64,000 nucleotides of DNA. It comes from an uncultured Prevotellaceae bacterium (GTDB lineage: Bacteria > Bacteroidota > Bacteroidia > Bacteroidales > Bacteroidaceae). The position numbers and the translations under genes are program-made. The notes under the pieces were generated by a model, which saw only the letters and a list, made by a program, of their open reading frames with translations, was not told the origin of the DNA and did no database searches. Shown piece by piece: positions 25,807 to 50,195 of this stretch (its first letter is position 1; every line of letters begins with the position of its first letter). The stretch is from positions 3,487-67,486 of the forward strand of contig CACZPU010000008.1 in the NCBI GenBank assembly GCA_902783165.1. Reading direction: 5' to 3'.

Positions 25807-27180
25807 ATGTCTCAAGACAATCACAAACTCAATCGCAGACAGTTTCTCAAGATGGTGGGAATGGGTTCTGCTTCAGCGATGGCCATGATGGCAATGAAAC
25901 CATTTAAAGTGTTGGCTCATCCAAGTAAGATTAAATATTCGTCGTCTTCAATACAACAAGGCATTGCCGGTAGCATGACCTATCGTGAAAACCACCATAC
26001 TGGCGATAAAGTTTCGTTGTTGGGTTATGGCATGATGCGACTGCCCCAGAAAGATGGTCAAATCAATCAGGAATTGGTGAACCAGGAAGTCGACTATGCC
26101 ATTGAACATGGTGTAAACTATTTTGACACTGCTCCACGCTATTGTGGCGGTCGTTCTGAAACGGCTACGGGCATTGCCTTGAGCAGACATCCGCGTGACA
26201 AATATCTCATTGCCACAAAAATGTCGAACCAAAGCAGGAACATGTGGCCGTTGGAGGAATCAAAGAAAATGTATTACCAGTCGTTCAAGTCCCTTCAAGT
26301 AGACTATATTGATTATTATCTTATGCACAGTGTTGGCGGGAGTGGCATGAAAGATTTCCGTCCGCGCTTTCTTGACAATGGTCTGCTCGATTTCCTCTTG
26401 GAGGAACGCAAGGCTGGTCGTATTCGCAATTTGGGCTTCTCTTATCATGGCAATGTGGAGGTTTTCGATTGGTTGCTTGATCATCAAGACCAATATCATT
26501 GGGATTTTTGTCAGATAGAGCTTAACTATGTGGATTGGCGTCATGCCTCTACTGGCCGAAAAAGAGATGCAGATGCCGAGTATTTATATAATAAATGTGA
26601 GAAGGCGGGCGTGCAGTGTGTCATCATGGAACCGCTGCTCGGTGGACGTCTCACTCGTCTTCCTGAGGAATTCGCTCGTCAGCTGAAGTCATTGCGTCCC
26701 GATGACAGCCAGGCAGCATGGTCGTTCCGTTGGATTGGCACCTTACCCAATGTGCTAACGGCATTGAGCGGAATGACTCTGATGGAGCATCTGGTTGACA
26801 ATGTGAAGACATTCTCACCGCTTGAGCCTTGCGATGAGAAGGAAAAGGCACTCCTTGCCCGTATTGCCGATGATATGCAGGGCTATCCAACCATCCCGTG
26901 TACTGCTTGTGAATATTGCATGCCGTGTCCTTATGGTGTGGATATTCCCGGTAATTTCGCCTATTACAATGAGGCAGTGAACAAAAAACTGTTGCCTTTG
27001 CCCGACAAAGACTCATCCGACTATCGCAGCCGGCATAATGAATATGTCAAGGGTTTCAAGAAGGCGATAGCCGAACTCAAGCGTGCCGACAAGTGTATGG
27101 ATTGCGAAGAATGCCTCGCAAAGTGTCCACAGCAGATTCGTATTCCCAATCAGATGGCTCGTTTGGTGGAATTGCTTTAA
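25807..27180 (+). CDS. Aldo/keto reductase with C-terminal 4Fe-4S dicluster and Tat signal
   Basis: NRRQFLK leader, AKR tetrad context (FDTA..Y, ATK, LMH), and CTACEYCMPCP and CMDCEECLAKCP. Confidence 0.85.
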   Translation: MSQDNHKLNRRQFLKMVGMGSASAMAMMAMKPFKVLAHPSKIKYSSSSIQQGIAGSMTYRENHHTGDKVSLLGYGMMRLPQKDGQINQELVNQEVDYAIEHGVNYFDTAPRYCGGRSETATGIALSRHPRDKYLIATKMSNQSRNMWPLEESKKMYYQSFKSLQVDYIDYYLMHSVGGSGMKDFRPRFLDNGLLDFLLEERKAGRIRNLGFSYHGNVEVFDWLLDHQDQYHWDFCQIELNYVDWRHASTGRKRDADAEYLYNKCEKAGVQCVIMEPLLGGRLTRLPEEFARQLKSLRPDDSQAAWSFRWIGTLPNVLTALSGMTLMEHLVDNVKTFSPLEPCDEKEKALLARIADDMQGYPTIPCTACEYCMPCPYGVDIPGNFAYYNEAVNKKLLPLPDKDSSDYRSRHNEYVKGFKKAIAELKRADKCMDCEECLAKCPQQIRIPNQMARLVELL

Positions 27181-33934: not shown

Positions 33935-35056
33935 ATGGAAAACAAGCTAACCGACAATTGCATGAAATTGGGTTTCGGTATGATGCGACTGCCGAAAATT
34001 GAAGGAACGAAAGACATTGATATTGAGCACACCAAGAGAATGGTGGATGCTTTCATACAGGCTGGCGGCAAATATTTTGACACCGCCTATGTATACGAAG
34101 GTTCGGAGGCTGCCACCAAACTTGCGCTCTGCGACCGATATCCTCGCGATAGCTATTACCTAGCCGACAAGCTCAATGCCTCTGACTTTGCCTGCAAGAC
34201 CGAGGAAGAGGCCAAGAACGAAATCAATGTCAGCCTTGAGCGCACAGGCGCGGGATACTTCGATTTCTATCTTCTCCATGGCATCGATTCGGGCAACAAG
34301 GACAAATACACTCAATATGGCATTTGGGATTACGTGAAGGGCCTGAAGGAAAAGGGGCTTGTCCGCCACTATGGATTCTCCTTCCACTCTGACCCCGACC
34401 AGCTCGAGGAACTGCTCACCGAACATCCCGATGTTGAATTTGTGCAACTCCAAATCAACTATTCCGATTGGGACGACCCTTTCATCGCATCGCGCCGCTG
34501 CTATGAAGTGGCCACTCGTCATGGTGTGCCCATTGTCGTGATGGAGCCCGTGAAAGGTGGCAAGCTAAGCAATCCTCCTCAGCAGGTGAAGGATATTCTG
34601 AAACAAGCCAACCCCGAGGCATCCTATGCATCATGGGCCATCCGATTTGCTGCATCGCTGCCCAATGTGATGATGGTGCTCAGCGGTATGTCGAACATGG
34701 AGCAAATGGAAGACAATGTGTCATTCATGCACGAACTGCAACCCCTGAATGATGAAGAACAGCGTGTTTTGGCAGCTGCCTGCAAGGCATTGTCAGAGTT
34801 CGATGGCATTGCTTGCACCGCTTGCCATTATTGTACTCCCGGCTGTCCCATGGAAATTCACATTCCCGAGATTTTTGCGGTGATGAATGTGTACAAGATG
34901 TATGGCGACTTGAACGAGGCGCGCAACGAATACCAATGGCGTCCTGGGGGTGAGAAGGCCTCGGCTTGTGTGCAATGTGGTCAGTGTGAGAATGCTTGTC
35001 CGCAGCATCTTCCCATCATCAGTCTGCTGGAAGAGGTGGCGGAAACGTTGGAGTGA
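33935..35056 (+). CDS. Cytoplasmic aldo/keto reductase with 4Fe-4S dicluster
   Basis: LGFGMMRLP, FDTAYVY, LLHG, CTACHYCTPGCP and CVQCGQCENACP motifs. No export signal. Confidence 0.88.
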   Translation: MENKLTDNCMKLGFGMMRLPKIEGTKDIDIEHTKRMVDAFIQAGGKYFDTAYVYEGSEAATKLALCDRYPRDSYYLADKLNASDFACKTEEEAKNEINVSLERTGAGYFDFYLLHGIDSGNKDKYTQYGIWDYVKGLKEKGLVRHYGFSFHSDPDQLEELLTEHPDVEFVQLQINYSDWDDPFIASRRCYEVATRHGVPIVVMEPVKGGKLSNPPQQVKDILKQANPEASYASWAIRFAASLPNVMMVLSGMSNMEQMEDNVSFMHELQPLNDEEQRVLAAACKALSEFDGIACTACHYCTPGCPMEIHIPEIFAVMNVYKMYGDLNEARNEYQWRPGGEKASACVQCGQCENACPQHLPIISLLEEVAETLE

Positions 35057-43632: not shown

Positions 43633-44019
43633 AATTGTTTTTTTGAAAATACCAAATGTTTATACCCTAAAAAAGACTTTTTCTGAAGTGCTTAGGCATT
43701 GTGCTTACACGTTATTACTTACACAACCCTACAAGCCCAGTTGTGGAAAGGAATACATCAAAGTTGGGGCGAAAAGAGAAGGGCGAATCAATGTGGATAA
43801 CAGTGAAACGACGGCTAACAACGCTACAAACATTTGGCATGACAGAGATGTAAATGGGCACAATTGTGTTGGCTGACGGAGCTTCTTACTTGTAAGTAGC
43901 GAAAAACGAAGGTGTTTTATGGGAATATTTCAATTATTATCACTAATTTTGCGACGTGGTTTGGCTTGCTGTTGTTGTACATAACAAACAACGGTACGCC
44001 GATAAACTCCTGAAGACTA

Positions 44020-45453
44020 ATGGAAAAAGATGTACAACAGGCTTCGGCCGAAACAAAGCGTGTGGCTGGATGTCTTATTGCAGCCACCAATTCTGGATGT
44101 GGGAAGACCACCATTACCATGGGATTGCTACGCTCCCTGAAAAGAAGACAACTGAATGTGCAGCCGTTCAAGTGCGGACCTGACTATATCGACACTCAGT
44201 ATCACCGCATCGCATCAGGATGCGAGAGCGTGAATCTCGACACATGGTTTGCATCCGAGCGCCATATTAAACAGGTGTTTGAGCACTATGGACAGCAGGC
44301 AGATGTGTGCGTGGTAGAAGGTGTGATGGGACTCTACGACGGCTATTGCCGATGGCATGGTAGCAGTGGTGAGATAGCGCACTTGCTCCATTTGCCTGTG
44401 GTATTGGTGGTGAATGCGCGCAGCATGGCATTTAGCGTGGCCCCCATCCTTTACGGCTACAAGCATTTTGCTATGAAGGGCGACAGTGGGCAGGATGCTC
44501 CGCTTGAATTGGCTGGCGTGATATTCAACCAAGTAGGTTCCGAACGCCACAAGCAATTGTTGCGCTCGGCATGCGACGAGGTGGGATTGAGGTGTTTGGG
44601 TATGATTCCGCGTGTGCCCGATATGCAGATTCCTTCACGTCATTTGGGGTTGACACTGGAGAACAAACAACTTATAGAGACGCTGGTAGAAAAGGCTGCA
44701 GCAGTTGTGGAGGAGTATGTGGATGTGGATGGGTTGTTGGAAATGATGAGAGATGGAATATACCAGAAGCCTAAAGAAACACCAATAAAACCACATCATA
44801 AAGGAGAATTACATAGTGGAATGCTCCCCATTGGTATTGAAAGCATTTTTCCTGTGGCGCATAAACGTGATGATAATTCCCAAGGAGGAATGTGTGCCCG
44901 TATCTTGGTGGCCCGCGATGAAGCATTCAATTTTGTCTATCGTGAGAACATAGATGTGTTGAGGCTGTGCGGAGAAGTGGTGTTTTTCTCTCCCTTGCAT
45001 GACCAAATGTTACCTCCAGCCACCGATTTCCTCTATCTGCCGGGCGGCTATCCTGAGTTTTTCCTTGAACAGCTTAGCGCCAATGAAGCAATGCGCAATA
45101 GCATCCGCGAGTATATAGAGCAGGGTGGCAGGTGCCTGGCTGAATGTGGCGGAATGATGTATCTGTGCCAGCATGTGGCGGGCGAGGACGGGAGGAAGTT
45201 TCCGATGGTGGGTGTACTCAACCAAGACGCAACCATGGTGGGCATGCACTTGCATTTGGGTTACCGCACGTTCAAGTTTGAAGGTCGCACCTGGCGTGGC
45301 CACGAGTTTCATTATTCTTCGGTGCCTAATCCCGACAACGCATGTACGTTGCCTATTGAGATAAGCGACGGGCATGGCAACATGGTGGATTCAAAGGTGT
45401 ATAAATGTAAAAATTTATTGGCAAGCTATATTCATCTCTATTGGGGAGAATGA
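44020..45453 (+). CDS. cbiA: Cobyrinate a,c-diamide synthase
   Basis: SGCGKTT, FKCGPDYID, EGVMGLYDG, SRHLGL, DEAFNFVY, GGYPE, ECGGMMYL and GHEFHYS motifs. The -7 box is at 43944-43951. Confidence 0.93.
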   Translation: MEKDVQQASAETKRVAGCLIAATNSGCGKTTITMGLLRSLKRRQLNVQPFKCGPDYIDTQYHRIASGCESVNLDTWFASERHIKQVFEHYGQQADVCVVEGVMGLYDGYCRWHGSSGEIAHLLHLPVVLVVNARSMAFSVAPILYGYKHFAMKGDSGQDAPLELAGVIFNQVGSERHKQLLRSACDEVGLRCLGMIPRVPDMQIPSRHLGLTLENKQLIETLVEKAAAVVEEYVDVDGLLEMMRDGIYQKPKETPIKPHHKGELHSGMLPIGIESIFPVAHKRDDNSQGGMCARILVARDEAFNFVYRENIDVLRLCGEVVFFSPLHDQMLPPATDFLYLPGGYPEFFLEQLSANEAMRNSIREYIEQGGRCLAECGGMMYLCQHVAGEDGRKFPMVGVLNQDATMVGMHLHLGYRTFKFEGRTWRGHEFHYSSVPNPDNACTLPIEISDGHGNMVDSKVYKCKNLLASYIHLYWGE

Positions 45454-45569: not shown

Positions 45570-45577
45570 TACATTTG
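45570..45577 (+). promoter_or_regulatory. Bacteroidota -7 promoter box
   Basis: TACATTTG upstream of the polyferredoxin gene. Confidence 0.6.
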
Positions 45578-45620: not shown

Positions 45621-47168
45621 ATGCTTAGAAAAGTAAGAATTCTGTTGGCTGCGATAGCTTTCACGGCCATCACTTTGTTGTTCCTGGATATCAGCGGCGC
45701 CTTGCACCAATGGTTGGGATGGCTGGCTACAATACAGTTCTTGCCTGCATTGCTGGCCATGAATGTGCTTGTAGTGGTGTTGCTGGTGGTGCTCACACTG
45801 GTTTTCGGCCGCATCTACTGCTCGGTGATTTGCCCGTTGGGAGTAATGCAGGACATTATCTCGTGGATTCATGGCAGACACAAGAAGAATCGCTTCGCTT
45901 TTTCGCCAGAGAAACGTTGGTGGCGCTATGGCACTTTGGGCGTTTTCGTGGTGGCTTTCATTGCCGGAGTCAACTCGCTGGTGGCCCTTCTGGCGCCCTA
46001 TAGCTCGTATGGACGAATAGCCAACAACTTGCTACGTCCTGTATATGAGGCAGGCAACAATGTGTTGGCGAGTATCGCAGAACACTATGACAGCTATGCC
46101 TTCTACCATACTGATGTCTGGGTGAAGAGCATTCCCACACTGATAGTGGCAATCGTCACGTTGGTGGTTATAGCTGTTCTGGCTTGGCGAGGAGGGCGTA
46201 CTTATTGCAATACGATATGTCCAGTGGGTACCATCCTCAGCTTCTTGGCCAGATTCTCATGGATGAAGATACATTTCGATGGGGACAAGTGCCGCCAGTG
46301 TTCTAAATGTTCGAAGAACTGCAAGGCTTCCTGTATCGATTATAAGACGCTGAAAGTAGACTATAGCCGTTGTGTGGTGTGCGGCAATTGTCTGGAGGAG
46401 TGCAAGTTCGGAGCACTGAAATACTCGCATGCGCGCCCAGTCATCCAAAAGCCTAAACAGGCAGATGCTCCTTTGCAAGAGCAAAACGATACGATTGACG
46501 ATGTTCAGGGGGCCGCATTTAAAGAGAATGTGACCGTTGATCAGAGCCGCCGTTCGTTTGTAATAGGTGCCGCATTGGCAACAACAGCAGCCGCATTGGC
46601 ACAGGAGCAAAAGAAAGTGGATGGAGGACTGGCGGTTATCGAGGACAGGGTGCCGCACGACAAGAGCACACCAGTGACGCCTCCGGGTTCTCTCTCTGCC
46701 AAGAATATGCAGCAGCATTGCACTGCATGCCAGTTGTGTGTGTCGGCTTGTCCCAACGAGGTGTTGCGCCCATCCACAGACCTGCTCACCTTTATGCAAC
46801 CAACGATGGGTTATGAGCGAGGATATTGCCGTGTGGAGTGCAACGATTGCGGACAAGTATGTCCCACAGGAGCTATCAAGCCCATCACACTCGAGGAGAA
46901 AAGCTCCATCCAAATAGGTCATGCCGTATGGGTGAAGAAGAATTGCATTCCTGTTGTCGAAGGAGTGGAGTGCGGCAATTGCGAGCGCCATTGTCCAGCG
47001 GGTGCCATTGAGATGGTTCCCCTCGATGAGAACGATGAAATGTCTGTGATGATACCTGCCGTGAACGAGGCCAAGTGTATCGGATGTGGAGCATGTGAGA
47101 ACCTTTGTCCAGCACGACCATTCAGTGCTATCTATGTGGAGGGACACGAGACTCACCGAATACTCTGA
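45621..47168 (+). CDS. Membrane polyferredoxin: NapH/MauN-like domain fused to NapG/MauM-like domain
   Basis: TM helices, two CxxxCP motifs (CSVICPLG, CNTICPVG), two cluster motifs, internal SRRSF plus a hydrophobic segment, then PPGS and four further cluster motifs. Confidence 0.85.
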   Translation: MLRKVRILLAAIAFTAITLLFLDISGALHQWLGWLATIQFLPALLAMNVLVVVLLVVLTLVFGRIYCSVICPLGVMQDIISWIHGRHKKNRFAFSPEKRWWRYGTLGVFVVAFIAGVNSLVALLAPYSSYGRIANNLLRPVYEAGNNVLASIAEHYDSYAFYHTDVWVKSIPTLIVAIVTLVVIAVLAWRGGRTYCNTICPVGTILSFLARFSWMKIHFDGDKCRQCSKCSKNCKASCIDYKTLKVDYSRCVVCGNCLEECKFGALKYSHARPVIQKPKQADAPLQEQNDTIDDVQGAAFKENVTVDQSRRSFVIGAALATTAAALAQEQKKVDGGLAVIEDRVPHDKSTPVTPPGSLSAKNMQQHCTACQLCVSACPNEVLRPSTDLLTFMQPTMGYERGYCRVECNDCGQVCPTGAIKPITLEEKSSIQIGHAVWVKKNCIPVVEGVECGNCERHCPAGAIEMVPLDENDEMSVMIPAVNEAKCIGCGACENLCPARPFSAIYVEGHETHRIL

Positions 47169-47221
47169 CCTCACCTTCAAAGACAAACCAATCACAATAT
47201 TAACCATTATATTTTAAAGAG

Positions 47222-48652
47222 ATGGACAGACGACAATTCCTCAAGATATTCGGAGGCACGGCAGTGGCATCATCAACATTGCTCGCGGCCTGTAAGAAGA
47301 GCGACGGCCAGCAGAAGACACTTGCCGAGCGGCAAGAGCCTCCTACCGACAAGATGACCATGCGCGTGAATCCAAACACCAATGACAAGGTGTCGCTCCT
47401 TGGCTATGGTATGATGAGACTCCCCATCGAAGGAGGTGGCAATCCACGTGAGAATCCAGATGCCGACTACGACCAGGAGATGATTAACAAGCAGGTGGAC
47501 TACGCTATTGCACATGGAGTGAATTATTTTGACACAAGTCCCGCCTATTGTAGAGGTCTTTCGGAACGATGCACAGGCATAGCCTTGCACCGACATCCAC
47601 GAGACAAATATTTCATTGCCACGAAGATGAGCAATTTCTCGCCAGACACATGGACCAGGGAGAGTTCCATCGAAATGTTTGAAAACTCGCTCAAAGAGTT
47701 GCAGGTGGACTATATCGACTATTTGCTCTTGCATGGTATAGGTGGTGATTCGCGATACTTGGATAGTGAGGAGACCTTCAATGCGCGCTATATGGACAAC
47801 GGTATTCTCGACTGGCTTGTCGAGCAGAAGAAGAAAGGACGTATACGCAACCTTGGATTCTCCTATCATGGCGATGTGGAAATCTACGACATGCTCTTGA
47901 AATGGCACGACGAGGGAAGATACCATTGGGACTTCGCACAGATAGAACTTAACTACCTCGACTGGGAGTGGGCCGATGAAATAAATGACCGCAACACAGA
48001 TGCATCCTACCTCTATGCCGAATTGGAGAAACGAGGCATACCTGCCGTCATTATGGAACCGCTTCTTGGCGGAAGACTGGCCAACGTTCCTGACCCTGTG
48101 GTGGCAAAAATGAAGCAACGTGAACCCGAAAGTTCGGTCGCATCATGGGCATTCAGGTATGCTGGAACCCCCAAGGGAGTGCTTACTGTGCTCAGCGGTA
48201 TGACCTACATGGAGCATCTGCGCGACAACATTTTCTCGTATGCACCGTTGAAACCCATCTCAAAAGAGGAGAACGACTTCCTCATGGAGGTGGCAGAAGA
48301 CATCTATAACTTGAAAACCATCCCTTGCAACGAGTGCAACTATTGCATGCCATGCCCTTATGGAATCAATATACCAGCTATTCTTGCACATTACAACAAA
48401 TGTATCAAGGAAGGCAACATACCTCACGTGGAGGAAGAGCAGAAGAAGCACATGGAGGCAGCTGAATACCGTAGAAGGCGAAGAGCATTCCTTATAGGAT
48501 ACGACCGCTCGGTACCCAAGCTCAGACAGGCAAACCATTGTATCCAGTGCGGACAATGCTCACCCCATTGCCCCCAACGCATCGACATACCAAAGGAAAT
48601 GCGGCGCATAGACGAATTCACCGAAGCTTTGAAACGCGAAGGAAGGCTTTAG
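47222..48652 (+). CDS. Aldo/keto reductase with 4Fe-4S dicluster, Tat lipoprotein leader
   Basis: MDRRQFLK...LLAAC leader with FDTSPAY, ATK, LLHG, CNECNYCMPCP and CIQCGQCSPHCP motifs. Confidence 0.87.
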   Translation: MDRRQFLKIFGGTAVASSTLLAACKKSDGQQKTLAERQEPPTDKMTMRVNPNTNDKVSLLGYGMMRLPIEGGGNPRENPDADYDQEMINKQVDYAIAHGVNYFDTSPAYCRGLSERCTGIALHRHPRDKYFIATKMSNFSPDTWTRESSIEMFENSLKELQVDYIDYLLLHGIGGDSRYLDSEETFNARYMDNGILDWLVEQKKKGRIRNLGFSYHGDVEIYDMLLKWHDEGRYHWDFAQIELNYLDWEWADEINDRNTDASYLYAELEKRGIPAVIMEPLLGGRLANVPDPVVAKMKQREPESSVASWAFRYAGTPKGVLTVLSGMTYMEHLRDNIFSYAPLKPISKEENDFLMEVAEDIYNLKTIPCNECNYCMPCPYGINIPAILAHYNKCIKEGNIPHVEEEQKKHMEAAEYRRRRRAFLIGYDRSVPKLRQANHCIQCGQCSPHCPQRIDIPKEMRRIDEFTEALKREGRL

Positions 48653-48698
48653 ACAAACATCATCTGTTCTACCTTTGCAAGAATAGTGTTTTCAAACA

Positions 48699-50195
48699 AT
48701 GAATAAGAAACTACACCCCATCATGTTTGCTGGCACAGGAAGCGATGTGGGAAAGAGTATCGTTGCCACTGCTTTCTGCCGGATATTCAAGGAAGACGGC
48801 TACCAGCCCGCACCCTTCAAGGCGCAAAACATGGCACTCAACTCCTATGCTACCCCCGAAGGACTGGAGATAGGAAGGGCGCAGGCTGTACAGGCCGAGG
48901 CAGCAGGACTGGCTTGTCATACCGATATGAATCCCTTGTTGCTCAAGCCCAATAGTGACCATACATCGCAAGTGGTGCTCAACGGCAAACCCATGGGAAA
49001 CTATCATGCTAGGGAATATTTTGGCGAGGAAACAAAGAACGGCATTTCGCGTGCCATGCTGAGAGAGGAAGTGCATCGTGCCTTCGACAGACTGGCCTCT
49101 CGATATAACCCCATTGTGATGGAAGGGGCGGGAAGTATTGCCGAAATCAACCTCCACGATCGCGACTTGGTGAATATGAGCATGGCCATGTACGCCCAAG
49201 CCGATGTCATCCTTGTGGCCGATATCGACCGTGGCGGAGTATTTGCAAGCGTCTATGGCTCCATCATGCTTCTCCCGCCAGAGGAGCGTGCACTCATCAA
49301 GGGCATTATCATCAACAAATTTCGGGGCGACATATCGCTTTTCGACGAAGGCCGACGCATGTTAGAGCAATTGTGTGGCATACCTGTGCTGGCAGTGCTA
49401 CCTTTTTTTAATGACATACATATCGAGGAGGAAGACTCTGTTTCGCTGGAAACGAAGAGTCGCGAGGCTGAGGAAGGGAAGGTGAACATTGCCATCGTCA
49501 TGCTTGGGCGCCTGAGCAATTTCACCGATTTTGATGCTTTGGAGCGCGATGAACGCGTGCATTTGTTTTACACCAATAACACCGAAGAGATTCGGAAAGC
49601 CGACATCATCATCATTCCTGGATCAAAAAACACCATTGCCGACCTCATGGAGATTCGGCGGAACGGTGTGGCACAAGCCATCCTCAGGGCACACCATGAT
49701 GGAAAAACCGTAATGGGCATCTGCGGCGGTTATCAGATGATGGGCGAGGAAATTCTCGACCCCAATCATGTGGAAGGGGAGGTGGAGCGAATGCCAGGCT
49801 TAGGATTATTGCCTACACGCACTATTATGGGTGGAGAGAAACGCACCGTACAGACAACATTCCGCTTTCTCCACTATCCAGAAGAGTGTCGTGGATATGA
49901 AATCCACATGGGTGAGACCAGTGTGATTCGCGATGAACAACACAAAGTGGCAGACACAGAGCAGGAGATACCAGCAGGATTCTATCTCAGCAACAAGTGT
50001 TTCGGCACCTACATGCACGGCATTCTCGACAATCAGCCTGTGGTTGACCATCTGCTTGAGCCATTCATTAGCCGATTGGAGGAACGAAAGCATTTCAACT
50101 ACGCTGAATACAAAGAGTTGCAATACAAACGGTTGGCCGAAGCCACACGCCTTTATACCGACATGGAGAAATTGTATCAGATACTCCAAGATTGA
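48699..50195 (+). CDS. cobQ: Cobyric acid synthase (CbiP)
   Basis: GTGSDVGKS, PFKAQNMALNS, EGAGS, DIDRGG, INKFRGD, SNFTDF, PGSK, GICGGYQM and GTYMHG motifs. Own -7 box at 48670-48677. Confidence 0.95.
   Translation: MNKKLHPIMFAGTGSDVGKSIVATAFCRIFKEDGYQPAPFKAQNMALNSYATPEGLEIGRAQAVQAEAAGLACHTDMNPLLLKPNSDHTSQVVLNGKPMGNYHAREYFGEETKNGISRAMLREEVHRAFDRLASRYNPIVMEGAGSIAEINLHDRDLVNMSMAMYAQADVILVADIDRGGVFASVYGSIMLLPPEERALIKGIIINKFRGDISLFDEGRRMLEQLCGIPVLAVLPFFNDIHIEEEDSVSLETKSREAEEGKVNIAIVMLGRLSNFTDFDALERDERVHLFYTNNTEEIRKADIIIIPGSKNTIADLMEIRRNGVAQAILRAHHDGKTVMGICGGYQMMGEEILDPNHVEGEVERMPGLGLLPTRTIMGGEKRTVQTTFRFLHYPEECRGYEIHMGETSVIRDEQHKVADTEQEIPAGFYLSNKCFGTYMHGILDNQPVVDHLLEPFISRLEERKHFNYAEYKELQYKRLAEATRLYTDMEKLYQILQD

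Follow-up and report, generated by a model that had tools for sequence, protein, structure and literature searches.

A predicted exported iron-sulfur aldo-keto reductase and its polyferredoxin partner in a rumen Prevotella

Aldo-keto reductases (AKRs) are textbook cytoplasmic enzymes that work with NAD(P)H. What, then, could one of them do behind a twin-arginine translocation (Tat) signal, with iron-sulfur clusters of its own and next to a membrane polyferredoxin? This question is raised by two co-oriented genes (45621-47168 and 47222-48652, + strand, separated by 53 nt) in a stretch of 64,000 nucleotides of contig CACZPU010000008.1 (assembly GCA_902783165.1, positions 3,487 to 67,486), called here the window, from an uncultured Prevotellaceae bacterium. 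The source genome, that of a rumen Prevotella, has 2.73 Mb and a completeness of 91%. The first gene encodes a polyferredoxin (PFD) and the second an AKR with a C-terminal iron-sulfur domain (an AKR-FeS protein). The original prediction, derived from the letters of the window, had proposed an extracytoplasmic reductase in which the polyferredoxin feeds electrons from menaquinol to the AKR, and all the features that it had named were found where it had placed them. The reading that we favour, with a probability of roughly 0.55, is that the two proteins form one self-contained, periplasm-facing membrane oxidoreductase, acting as a quinol-driven reductase.

The two proteins and their predicted location

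Relatives of the AKR were collected from 80 genome loci and 80 metagenome loci at 51-89% identity, those from metagenomes being 51-71% identical and leaving the taxonomic sample no broader. Conservation was read from 77 AKR homologues and 66 full-length PFD homologues, gene neighbourhoods were counted in the first 80 loci or in the full set of 166, and co-occurrence was scored in 151 evenly sampled Bacteroidales genomes (G000-G150). In addition, residues were surveyed in 114 representatives of the AKR-FeS family, and the cluster Cys were checked in 52 diverse members. Domains were called with Pfam and NCBIfam, helices were located by Kyte-Doolittle hydropathy, and the alignment to the AKR NphT was made with HMMER against PDB 9YEB.

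The product of the second gene begins with MDRRQFLKIFGGTAVASSTLLAAC and shows everything that had been announced for it, from MDRRQFLK...LLAAC to the D/Y/K/H residues of an AKR and two cluster motifs (Table 1). PF00248 covers residues 60-352 (cut-off 24 bits), Fer4_9 was also matched, and the cluster motifs read CxxCxxCxxCP (369-379) and CxxCxxCxxxCP (440-451). At least 97% of the AKR homologues kept each of the RRxF motif, the Cys of the lipobox, the catalytic tetrad and the eight Cys of the cluster motifs, and these eight were invariant across the 52 diverse members. An AlphaFold2 model of the AKR, obtained with 52 family members, reached a pLDDT of 91.3 and a pTM of 0.87, with only the signal peptide disordered; its top Foldseek matches were ordinary AKR barrels that covered the barrel only, and 9YEB was not among the top 50 from a PDB copy that runs to April 2026. 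By sequence, the nearest characterised proteins are aldose 1-dehydrogenases and NphT. As TatC is also encoded in the genome (contig C130:36500-37312), the data support a Tat lipoprotein, with its lipidation predicted from the signal sequence.

The polyferredoxin likewise presented the expected elements, namely about four transmembrane (TM) segments, two cluster motifs, SRRSF, a hydrophobic stretch and a PPGS/four-cluster domain. Pfam and NCBIfam returned two Fer4_5 and four Fer4 matches, a NapH-like match at residues 175-269 and a NapG-like one at residues 305-498. Its loops contain, in order, 3/0/8/3/5 Lys plus Arg residues, which fits an N-in topology that would place the first ferredoxin domain, like the two CX3CP motifs, at the cytoplasmic face. 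A linker of 45 residues separates the two [4Fe-4S] motifs of this domain from SRRSF, which is followed by the fifth helix, FVIGAALATTAAALA, and then by QEQKK. This last helix is weakly hydrophobic (Kyte-Doolittle value of 0.98 over 19 residues or 1.99 over 15 residues, compared with 2.3-3.1 for TM1-4), and across the homologues its h-region is rich in Ala, Thr and Gly and precedes a nearly invariant AQEKKKVDGG. All 28 motif Cys were invariant in the 66 homologues, and an additional one, C238, was present in 86% of them. Twin arginines that are not conserved in homologues would have counted against the original prediction, but they proved to be conserved: besides the RRxF of the AKRs, 63 of the 66 PFD homologues have RR as the internal motif, and the other 3 have KR.

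Polyferredoxins of this kind are a known class of NapH-NapG fusions with five helices and about seven clusters, whose prototype, Q1NSB0, belongs to delta proteobacterium MLMS-1 (Tooke et al., eLife 2017, PMC5449189). Reporter fusions revealed that Tat is required for the last helix and the C-terminal domain of the class, and that the handover from Sec to Tat depends on the low hydrophobicity of this helix and on the positive charges after it (PMC5449189). PFD resembles these proteins in having five helices with the RR directly preceding the fifth, in the weakly hydrophobic helix 5 followed by positive charges, and in the division of its cluster sites, with about three in the cytoplasm and four beyond the membrane. 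Its assignment to the dual Sec/Tat type was thereby upheld, all three topogenic features of the class being kept, and by analogy its C-terminal domain is predicted to be Tat-translocated. The taxa reported in that work are Chloroflexi, Nitrospirae, and Euryarchaeota, to which a table adds Latescibacteria, Caldithrix, and others, with Bacteroidales not among them. Furthermore, no catalytic partner is given there, whereas the PFD described here has a fixed one, the AKR-FeS protein with its predicted export.

The same two modules, motifs and predicted sidedness are found in NapGH of E. coli and Wolinella succinogenes, in NosGH and in MauMN. PFD combines what marks NapH, namely four helices, a pair of CX3CP motifs and a pair of cytoplasmic [4Fe-4S] motifs, with what marks NapG, a Tat signal and four [4Fe-4S] motifs, but in a single chain, whereas NapG and NapH are separate chains. 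Its scores lie below the cut-offs of the NapH profiles (TIGR02163, 80.7 against 213; NF007013, 78 against 234) and of the NapG profiles (TIGR00397, 76.5 against 178.9; NF007012, 73.5 against 269). Moreover, no match to the molybdopterin oxidoreductase family (PF00384), and hence to NapA, was found anywhere in the genome, so PFD has no Nap partner and its constant neighbour is the AKR. Judged by its sequence, PFD is NapGH-like in working and is neither a NapH/NapG orthologue nor a member of a Nap system; NapGH serves here as the presumed model for its link to the quinone pool.

Gene pairing, operons and family structure

Of the first 80 loci, 75 have PFD directly next to the AKR, and the five exceptions are contigs that end no more than about 1.1 kb upstream. 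In the full set, a PFD with 60-78% identity was adjacent in 147 of 166 loci, and the pairing was still seen at 42% identity (L083 and L084, where a second AKR follows), in L092 and, in reversed order, in L082. Among the Bacteroidales genomes, the AKR was detected in 20 of 151, and full-length PFD matches of at least 49% identity were present in exactly those 20. Both genes are adjacent in about 18 of them; in G110 they lie on separate contigs, and in G039 the PFD is split into pieces that are 54-58% identical. TatC is encoded beside the pair in 46 of the 80 loci and is present somewhere in each of the 20 AKR-bearing genomes, and tatA-tatC accompany one distant homologue. Taken together, these observations support that PFD and AKR are an evolutionarily fixed pair.

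Eleven of the loci (L029, L040, L046, L048, L057, L063, L066, L069, L075, L077, L078), with AKRs that are 70-72% identical and the same gene order, were binned as Firmicutes or Actinobacteria (Oscillibacter, Lachnospiraceae, Vescimonas, and others). These labels are likely accounted for by mis-binned Bacteroidales contigs.

Fuller operons were also found, in which, among the 80 loci, DUF1893 appears in 34, a membrane protein of about 170 residues in 28 and a small TonB-dependent receptor in 14. The membrane protein is weakly similar to the folate-type S component of energy-coupling factor (ECF) transporters (E = 0.0045). Loci L025, L031, L036, L064, L060, and L074 contain a DUF362 protein with a signal peptide, the TonB-dependent receptor, TatC, PFD, AKR, DUF1893 and the 170-residue protein, and a flavodoxin with a signal peptide is added in some of the fuller operons. 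DUF1893 (TM1506-like) has a nucleotide-binding, deaminase-like fold, and our literature searches retrieved no paper on its function. Two proteins, P0106 and P0241, are fusions that carry a Tat signal, a lipobox, the AKR, the FeS domain and, at the C-terminus, DUF1893, which indicates that the latter probably acts outside the cytoplasm. Stand-alone DUF1893 has no signal, and its gene, located just downstream, often overlaps the stop codon of the AKR (e.g., in L021, L036, and L048); from these sequences, it is probably exported together with the AKR. The genome studied here contains the bare two-gene form; it encodes TatC, a DUF362 protein and a homologue of the membrane protein of about 170 residues at other places, and no DUF1893 was found in it.

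A HMMER search against 1.84 billion representatives retrieved 7868 AKR-FeS relatives, and a quick maximum-likelihood tree was built with 93 two-domain members. The AKR grouped with a second paralogue from the window (25807-27180) in a clade of mostly exported forms (support 99), whereas a third paralogue, of 373 residues (33935-35056), fell into a large cytoplasmic clade (support 100); a few other exported forms branch at the base of the larger group to which the cytoplasmic clade belongs. Cytoplasmic forms of about 375 residues make up the larger part of the family and correspond to COG1453-type AKR-ferredoxin fusions. With these, the exported AKRs share the two-domain core, GFSxH and the cluster Cys; they differ from them in an N-terminal extension of about 50 residues with the Tat signal, with or without a lipobox, in a first cluster motif that is one residue shorter, and in being tied to a PFD gene. 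In the tree, the exported clade is placed as a sister group or a derivative of the COG1453-type fusions. The second paralogue has the Tat signal NRRQFLK without a lipobox Cys and keeps GFSYHG and all the cluster Cys; no PFD lies next to it, and it may share the PFD at 45621-47168. In L083 (6398-10888), two AKR-FeS genes stand in tandem after PFD, and the first of them (P0251) has GFSFSG and has lost the conserved His.

When the genome was crudely scanned for Tat signals at the N-terminus, nine candidates emerged, among which only the two exported AKRs looked convincing; together with PFD, they may be what Tat mainly transports in this organism. That Tat might be present solely for the module was considered and rejected at the level of the order, TatC being encoded in 133 of the 151 Bacteroidales genomes.

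Table 1. Positions in the window of the gene pair, its predicted elements, the AKR-FeS paralogues and the flanking features (aa, amino acids; ORF, open reading frame; res, residues).
Feature	Position	Strand	Basis or remark
AKR, predicted Tat-exported lipoprotein with C-terminal 2x[4Fe-4S], 476 aa	47222..48652	+	ORF, Pfam, conservation
Twin-Arg signal MDRRQFLK, h-region, lipobox LLAAC24	47222..47293	+	RRxF and lipobox Cys kept in >=97% of 77
AKR TIM barrel, D104/Y109/K135/H171	47399..48277	+	PF00248, 117.8 bits
DTSPAYC	47531-47551	+	within AKR barrel
GFSYHG	47855-47872	+	within AKR barrel
MEPLLGG	48053-48073	+	within AKR barrel
Helical dicluster domain, CNECNYCMPCP ... CIQCGQCSPHCP	48326..48574	+	Fer4_9/Fer4_17
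PFD, polytopic NapH-NapG fusion, 515 aa	45621..47168	+	ORF, Pfam, NCBIfam
NapH-like membrane part	45639..46184	+	hydropathy 2.3-3.1, loop K+R counts
TM1 (res 7-25)	45639-45695	+	Kyte-Doolittle 2.3-3.1
TM2 (res 44-62)	45750-45806	+	Kyte-Doolittle 2.3-3.1
TM3 (res 106-124)	45936-45992	+	Kyte-Doolittle 2.3-3.1
TM4 (res 170-188)	46128-46184	+	Kyte-Doolittle 2.3-3.1
CX3CP-1, after TM2 (C67/C71)	45819-45836	+	
CX3CP-2, after TM4 (C196/C200)	46206-46223	+	
Predicted cytoplasmic 2x[4Fe-4S], two CxxCxxCxxxC motifs (res 224-261)	46290-46403	+	motif Cys invariant, 66 homologues
Predicted internal Tat signal, SRRSF (res 309-313) + TM5 + KK	46545..46616	+	conservation in PFD homologues
RR (R310-R311)	46548-46553	+	
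TM5	46557-46601	+	
KK (331-332)	46611-46616	+	
NapG-like domain, predicted periplasmic	46680..47165	+	NCBIfam MauM/NapG match, residues 337-496
Four [4Fe-4S] motifs (C367-C496), after PPGS (res 354-357)	46719-47108	+	16/16 Cys invariant
Second AKR-FeS paralogue, predicted exported, 457 aa, 46% identity	25807..27180	+	same exported clade as AKR
Third AKR-FeS paralogue, cytoplasmic, 373 aa, 33% identity	33935..35056	+	cytoplasmic clade
Bacteroidetes-type -7 box TACATTTG	45570..45577	+	44 nt 5' of PFD start codon
TAnnTTTG box before cbiA	43944-43951		sequence motif
TAnnTTTG box before cobQ	48670-48677		sequence motif
Hairpin, 11-bp stem, overlapping cbiA stop codon	45440-45464		
cbiA	44020-45453		
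cobQ	48699-50195		

Electron flow, cofactor and alternative readings

In the favoured arrangement, Sec would insert helices 1-4 of PFD, leaving the two CX3CP motifs and two [4Fe-4S] clusters on the cytoplasmic face, and the RR motif, the weakly hydrophobic TM5 and the KK stop would let Tat take over the NapG-like domain, folded and with its four clusters. The AKR would gain its two [4Fe-4S] clusters in the cytoplasm, leave it folded via Tat, be lipidated at C24 and dock on the NapG-like domain. The NapH-like part would exchange electrons with menaquinone, which is the quinone used by Prevotella (PMC10739449), and about eight clusters would then link the menaquinone pool with the Asp/Tyr/Lys/His site. 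The substrate would be a small periplasmic compound of carbonyl type, for which free NAD(P)H would not be needed, and the acceptor would be of high potential and capable of single-electron steps, for example a quinone or an alpha-dicarbonyl-like compound; with an acceptor that takes single electrons, a hydride carrier would be unnecessary. The location and the wiring of the module are well supported, the observations behind them being the motifs, their conservation, the pairing, the Tat neighbourhood and the loss of an Asn described below; from there, we infer the docking, the quinone link, the direction of flow, the cofactor and the substrate. We favour flow from quinol to substrate because the family offers this precedent and because anaerobes of the gut need electron sinks. 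With respect to the original prediction, an exported AKR wired by iron-sulfur clusters stands as the best reading of the pair, whereas menaquinol as the donor and the role as a reductase are more tentative, the potential being unfavourable for ordinary carbonyls.

Several points weigh against a quinol-driven reductase. With NapH and NapG scores so far under the cut-offs, quinol oxidation by PFD is an analogy only. The potential of menaquinol is about -74 mV and that of ordinary carbonyls about -200 mV, so menaquinol would be unable to reduce the latter, and either a high-potential acceptor or a reverse flow is called for. To our knowledge, all AKR chemistry is hydride transfer, and iron-sulfur clusters need a converter between two-electron and one-electron steps. 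In addition, the nearest characterised relatives, aldose 1-dehydrogenases and NphT, fit the opposite flow equally well.

This opposite flow is a serious rival, which we consider possible though clearly the less probable of the two directions. The AKR would be a periplasmic aldose or alcohol dehydrogenase that passes electrons through the iron-sulfur chain to menaquinone and on to fumarate reductase, as an anaerobe's counterpart of the quinone-linked periplasmic sugar dehydrogenases. The best matches among solved structures, i.e., L-galactose 1-dehydrogenases, AKR11C1 and the sugar oxidiser/reducer NphT, speak for it, and so do textbook potentials, by which the transfer from aldose-to-lactone oxidation (about -360 mV) to menaquinone is strongly downhill and that from menaquinol to a carbonyl uphill. 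Monosaccharides are, moreover, released in the periplasm of Bacteroidales, and glycoside hydrolases surround the AKR-FeS paralogues in the window. However, a hydride-accepting cofactor able to hand single electrons to iron-sulfur clusters would still be required, it is sinks for electrons and not donors that are scarce for fermenters of the gut and the rumen, and the characterised modules of the NapH family are all reported to oxidise quinol (see also PMC5449189).

Both directions face the question of the cofactor. In canonical AKRs, a Ser-Asn pair after strand 5 holds the carboxamide of the nicotinamide. The AKR has S214-Y215-H216 in its place, with Y215 at the position of the Asn, and the consensus of the family is GFSFHG; of the NADPH-type fold that the original prediction had recognised, the barrel is thus present, whereas the nicotinamide-binding Asn is lost and a His as in NphT is found. 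Iron-sulfur clusters carry single electrons, AKR chemistry transfers hydride, and the periplasm is without NAD(P)H; a flavin domain is absent from both PFD and AKR.

NphT is an AKR that binds the nickel-pincer mononucleotide (NPMN), with His144 as nickel ligand and Lys200 as thioamide tether (Semersky et al., Nat Chem 2026, PMC13524815; PDB 9YEB). Like the AKR studied here, it has a barrel with the full tetrad, has lost the nicotinamide-binding Asn and carries a His at the nickel-ligand position (S/T-x-H-G). In the HMMER alignment, GFSYH216G fell on GITGH144G of NphT, and the His was present in about 108 of the 114 family representatives. The tether position, placed by spacing only because the C-terminal half of 9YEB could not be aligned by sequence, corresponds to L282 in MEPLLGG and is a Lys in only 16 of the 114 representatives and in one of the exported forms. 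In a search with a profile of the entire family, 9YEB took ninth place, and a profile of the C-terminal half failed to reach it. The third paralogue, in the cytoplasmic clade, has GFSFHS and MEPVKGG, that is, both nickel-pincer residues, although the genome has no lar genes. Compared with NphT, which is a soluble, redox-neutral hydride shuttle, the AKR lacks the predicted tether Lys, belongs to a genome and to neighbourhoods in which larBCE were not found, and adds a 2x[4Fe-4S] domain, a Tat signal, a lipid anchor and a membrane partner.

It is doubtful, in our view, that the AKR is an NphT-like enzyme in which the nickel cofactor replaces NAD(P)H and converts between hydride and single electrons. 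The aligned His, the shared loss of the Asn and the reported share of lar-linked AKRs with the His but no Lys, which is 40%, with His-only, non-covalent binding being allowed (PMC13524815), point in that direction. Nevertheless, LarC was absent from this genome, at its 91% completeness, and neither LarB nor LarE scored above the cut-off in it; no lar genes were detected in the 166 AKR loci or in five more distant contexts; and the tether position is mostly not a Lys. Furthermore, LarC was present in 24 and the AKR in 20 of the 151 Bacteroidales genomes, and both never occurred together, with about 3.2 co-occurrences expected (hypergeometric P = 0.024). Pincer genes do associate with a wire of the PFD type: paralogues of PFD with 38-45% identity were found in about 55 further Bacteroidales genomes, and in 9 of 9 LarC loci that were opened (L094 6464-11800; L181-L188), larB/(E)/C lie head to head with a DUF362 gene with a Tat signal, followed by a PFD paralogue. 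The partner there is DUF362 and not an AKR, which leads us to recognise at least two kinds of exported partner for such wires, with the lar genes going along with DUF362. DUF362 and LarA belong to one Pfam clan (PMC11770544), and the DUF362 protein beside the lar genes looks like a candidate exported nickel-pincer enzyme on a wire of this type. We do not class the AKR as a nickel-pincer enzyme.

A variant of this explanation, which we hold to be unlikely, is that the exported AKR-FeS proteins of lar-less Bacteroidales use a nickel-pincer cofactor that is scavenged instead of self-made. Scavenging would explain that the NphT-like His is kept and that LarC and AKR exclude each other in the 151 genomes, and it would also explain the TonB-dependent receptor, the solitary ECF S-like protein and the DUF1893 of the fuller operons. 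Should this hold, salvage of the nickel-pincer cofactor would be seen for the first time, and so would, in the AKR, a nickel-pincer enzyme that iron-sulfur clusters connect to a respiratory chain.

The flank of the pair suggests still another role, in corrinoid metabolism, for instance the periplasmic reduction of cobalt-corrinoids during salvage. The pair lies between cbiA and cobQ, with cbiB and cobD in the vicinity; this order is shared by its two closest relatives (L001 and L002), cobQ is found 5 kb from the pair in L064, and some homologous operons include the ECF S-like protein and a small TonB-dependent receptor whose match to the B12-receptor model extends from one end to the other. 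This receptor score is, however, generic (131 bits against a cut-off of 600), and cobalamin genes are near the pair in just 3 of the first 80 loci, the cbiA-pair-cobQ order recurring only in the two loci named. Neither the window nor eight homologous loci yielded a cobalamin or other riboswitch at the gathering threshold of Rfam, and none was seen upstream of cbiA or PFD at E <= 1. Finally, separate -7 boxes precede cbiA, the pair and cobQ, and a hairpin closes cbiA, so the three look like separate transcription units; the box motif TAnnTTTG is enriched in the window (57 observed, 37 expected). The pair appears to be a unit of its own whose insertion split a cbiA-cobQ arrangement, in what appears to be a lineage-specific accident, and we regard a corrinoid role as very improbable.

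The same applies, even more strongly, to the possibility that the RR motifs are coincidental and that both proteins face the cytoplasm as an ordinary ferredoxin-linked AKR system. Signal-less AKR-FeS proteins of about 375 residues do dominate the family, and one of them is encoded in this window. Nevertheless, the homologues retain both Tat motifs together with the lipobox and the KK stop, and TatC is often encoded beside the pair. The exported forms, with their N-terminal extension, branch as a clade of their own, and the PFD class is experimentally Tat-dependent (PMC5449189). We therefore consider a cytoplasmic location extremely improbable.

Implications of an exported, cluster-wired AKR

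The polyferredoxin belongs to a known class. Our literature searches returned no paper on exported or iron-sulfur AKRs, on their fixed pairing with PFD or on the accessory genes. A lipid-anchored AKR that is exported and wired to the membrane through about ten iron-sulfur clusters would, if true, be a new type of periplasmic redox enzyme and a new way of driving the AKR fold. It would also pose a chemical question of its own, namely how carriers of single electrons feed a hydride-transfer site without a flavin, in a genome without the nickel-pincer pathway.

The module is present in about 13% of the sampled Bacteroidales families and is widespread in Prevotella, Bacteroides, and Phocaeicola of the rumen and the gut, with relatives in other phyla at 38-44% identity. 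As it is so common, a compound derived from the diet or from the host is probably reduced or oxidised by it at scale, in the gut as well as in the rumen.

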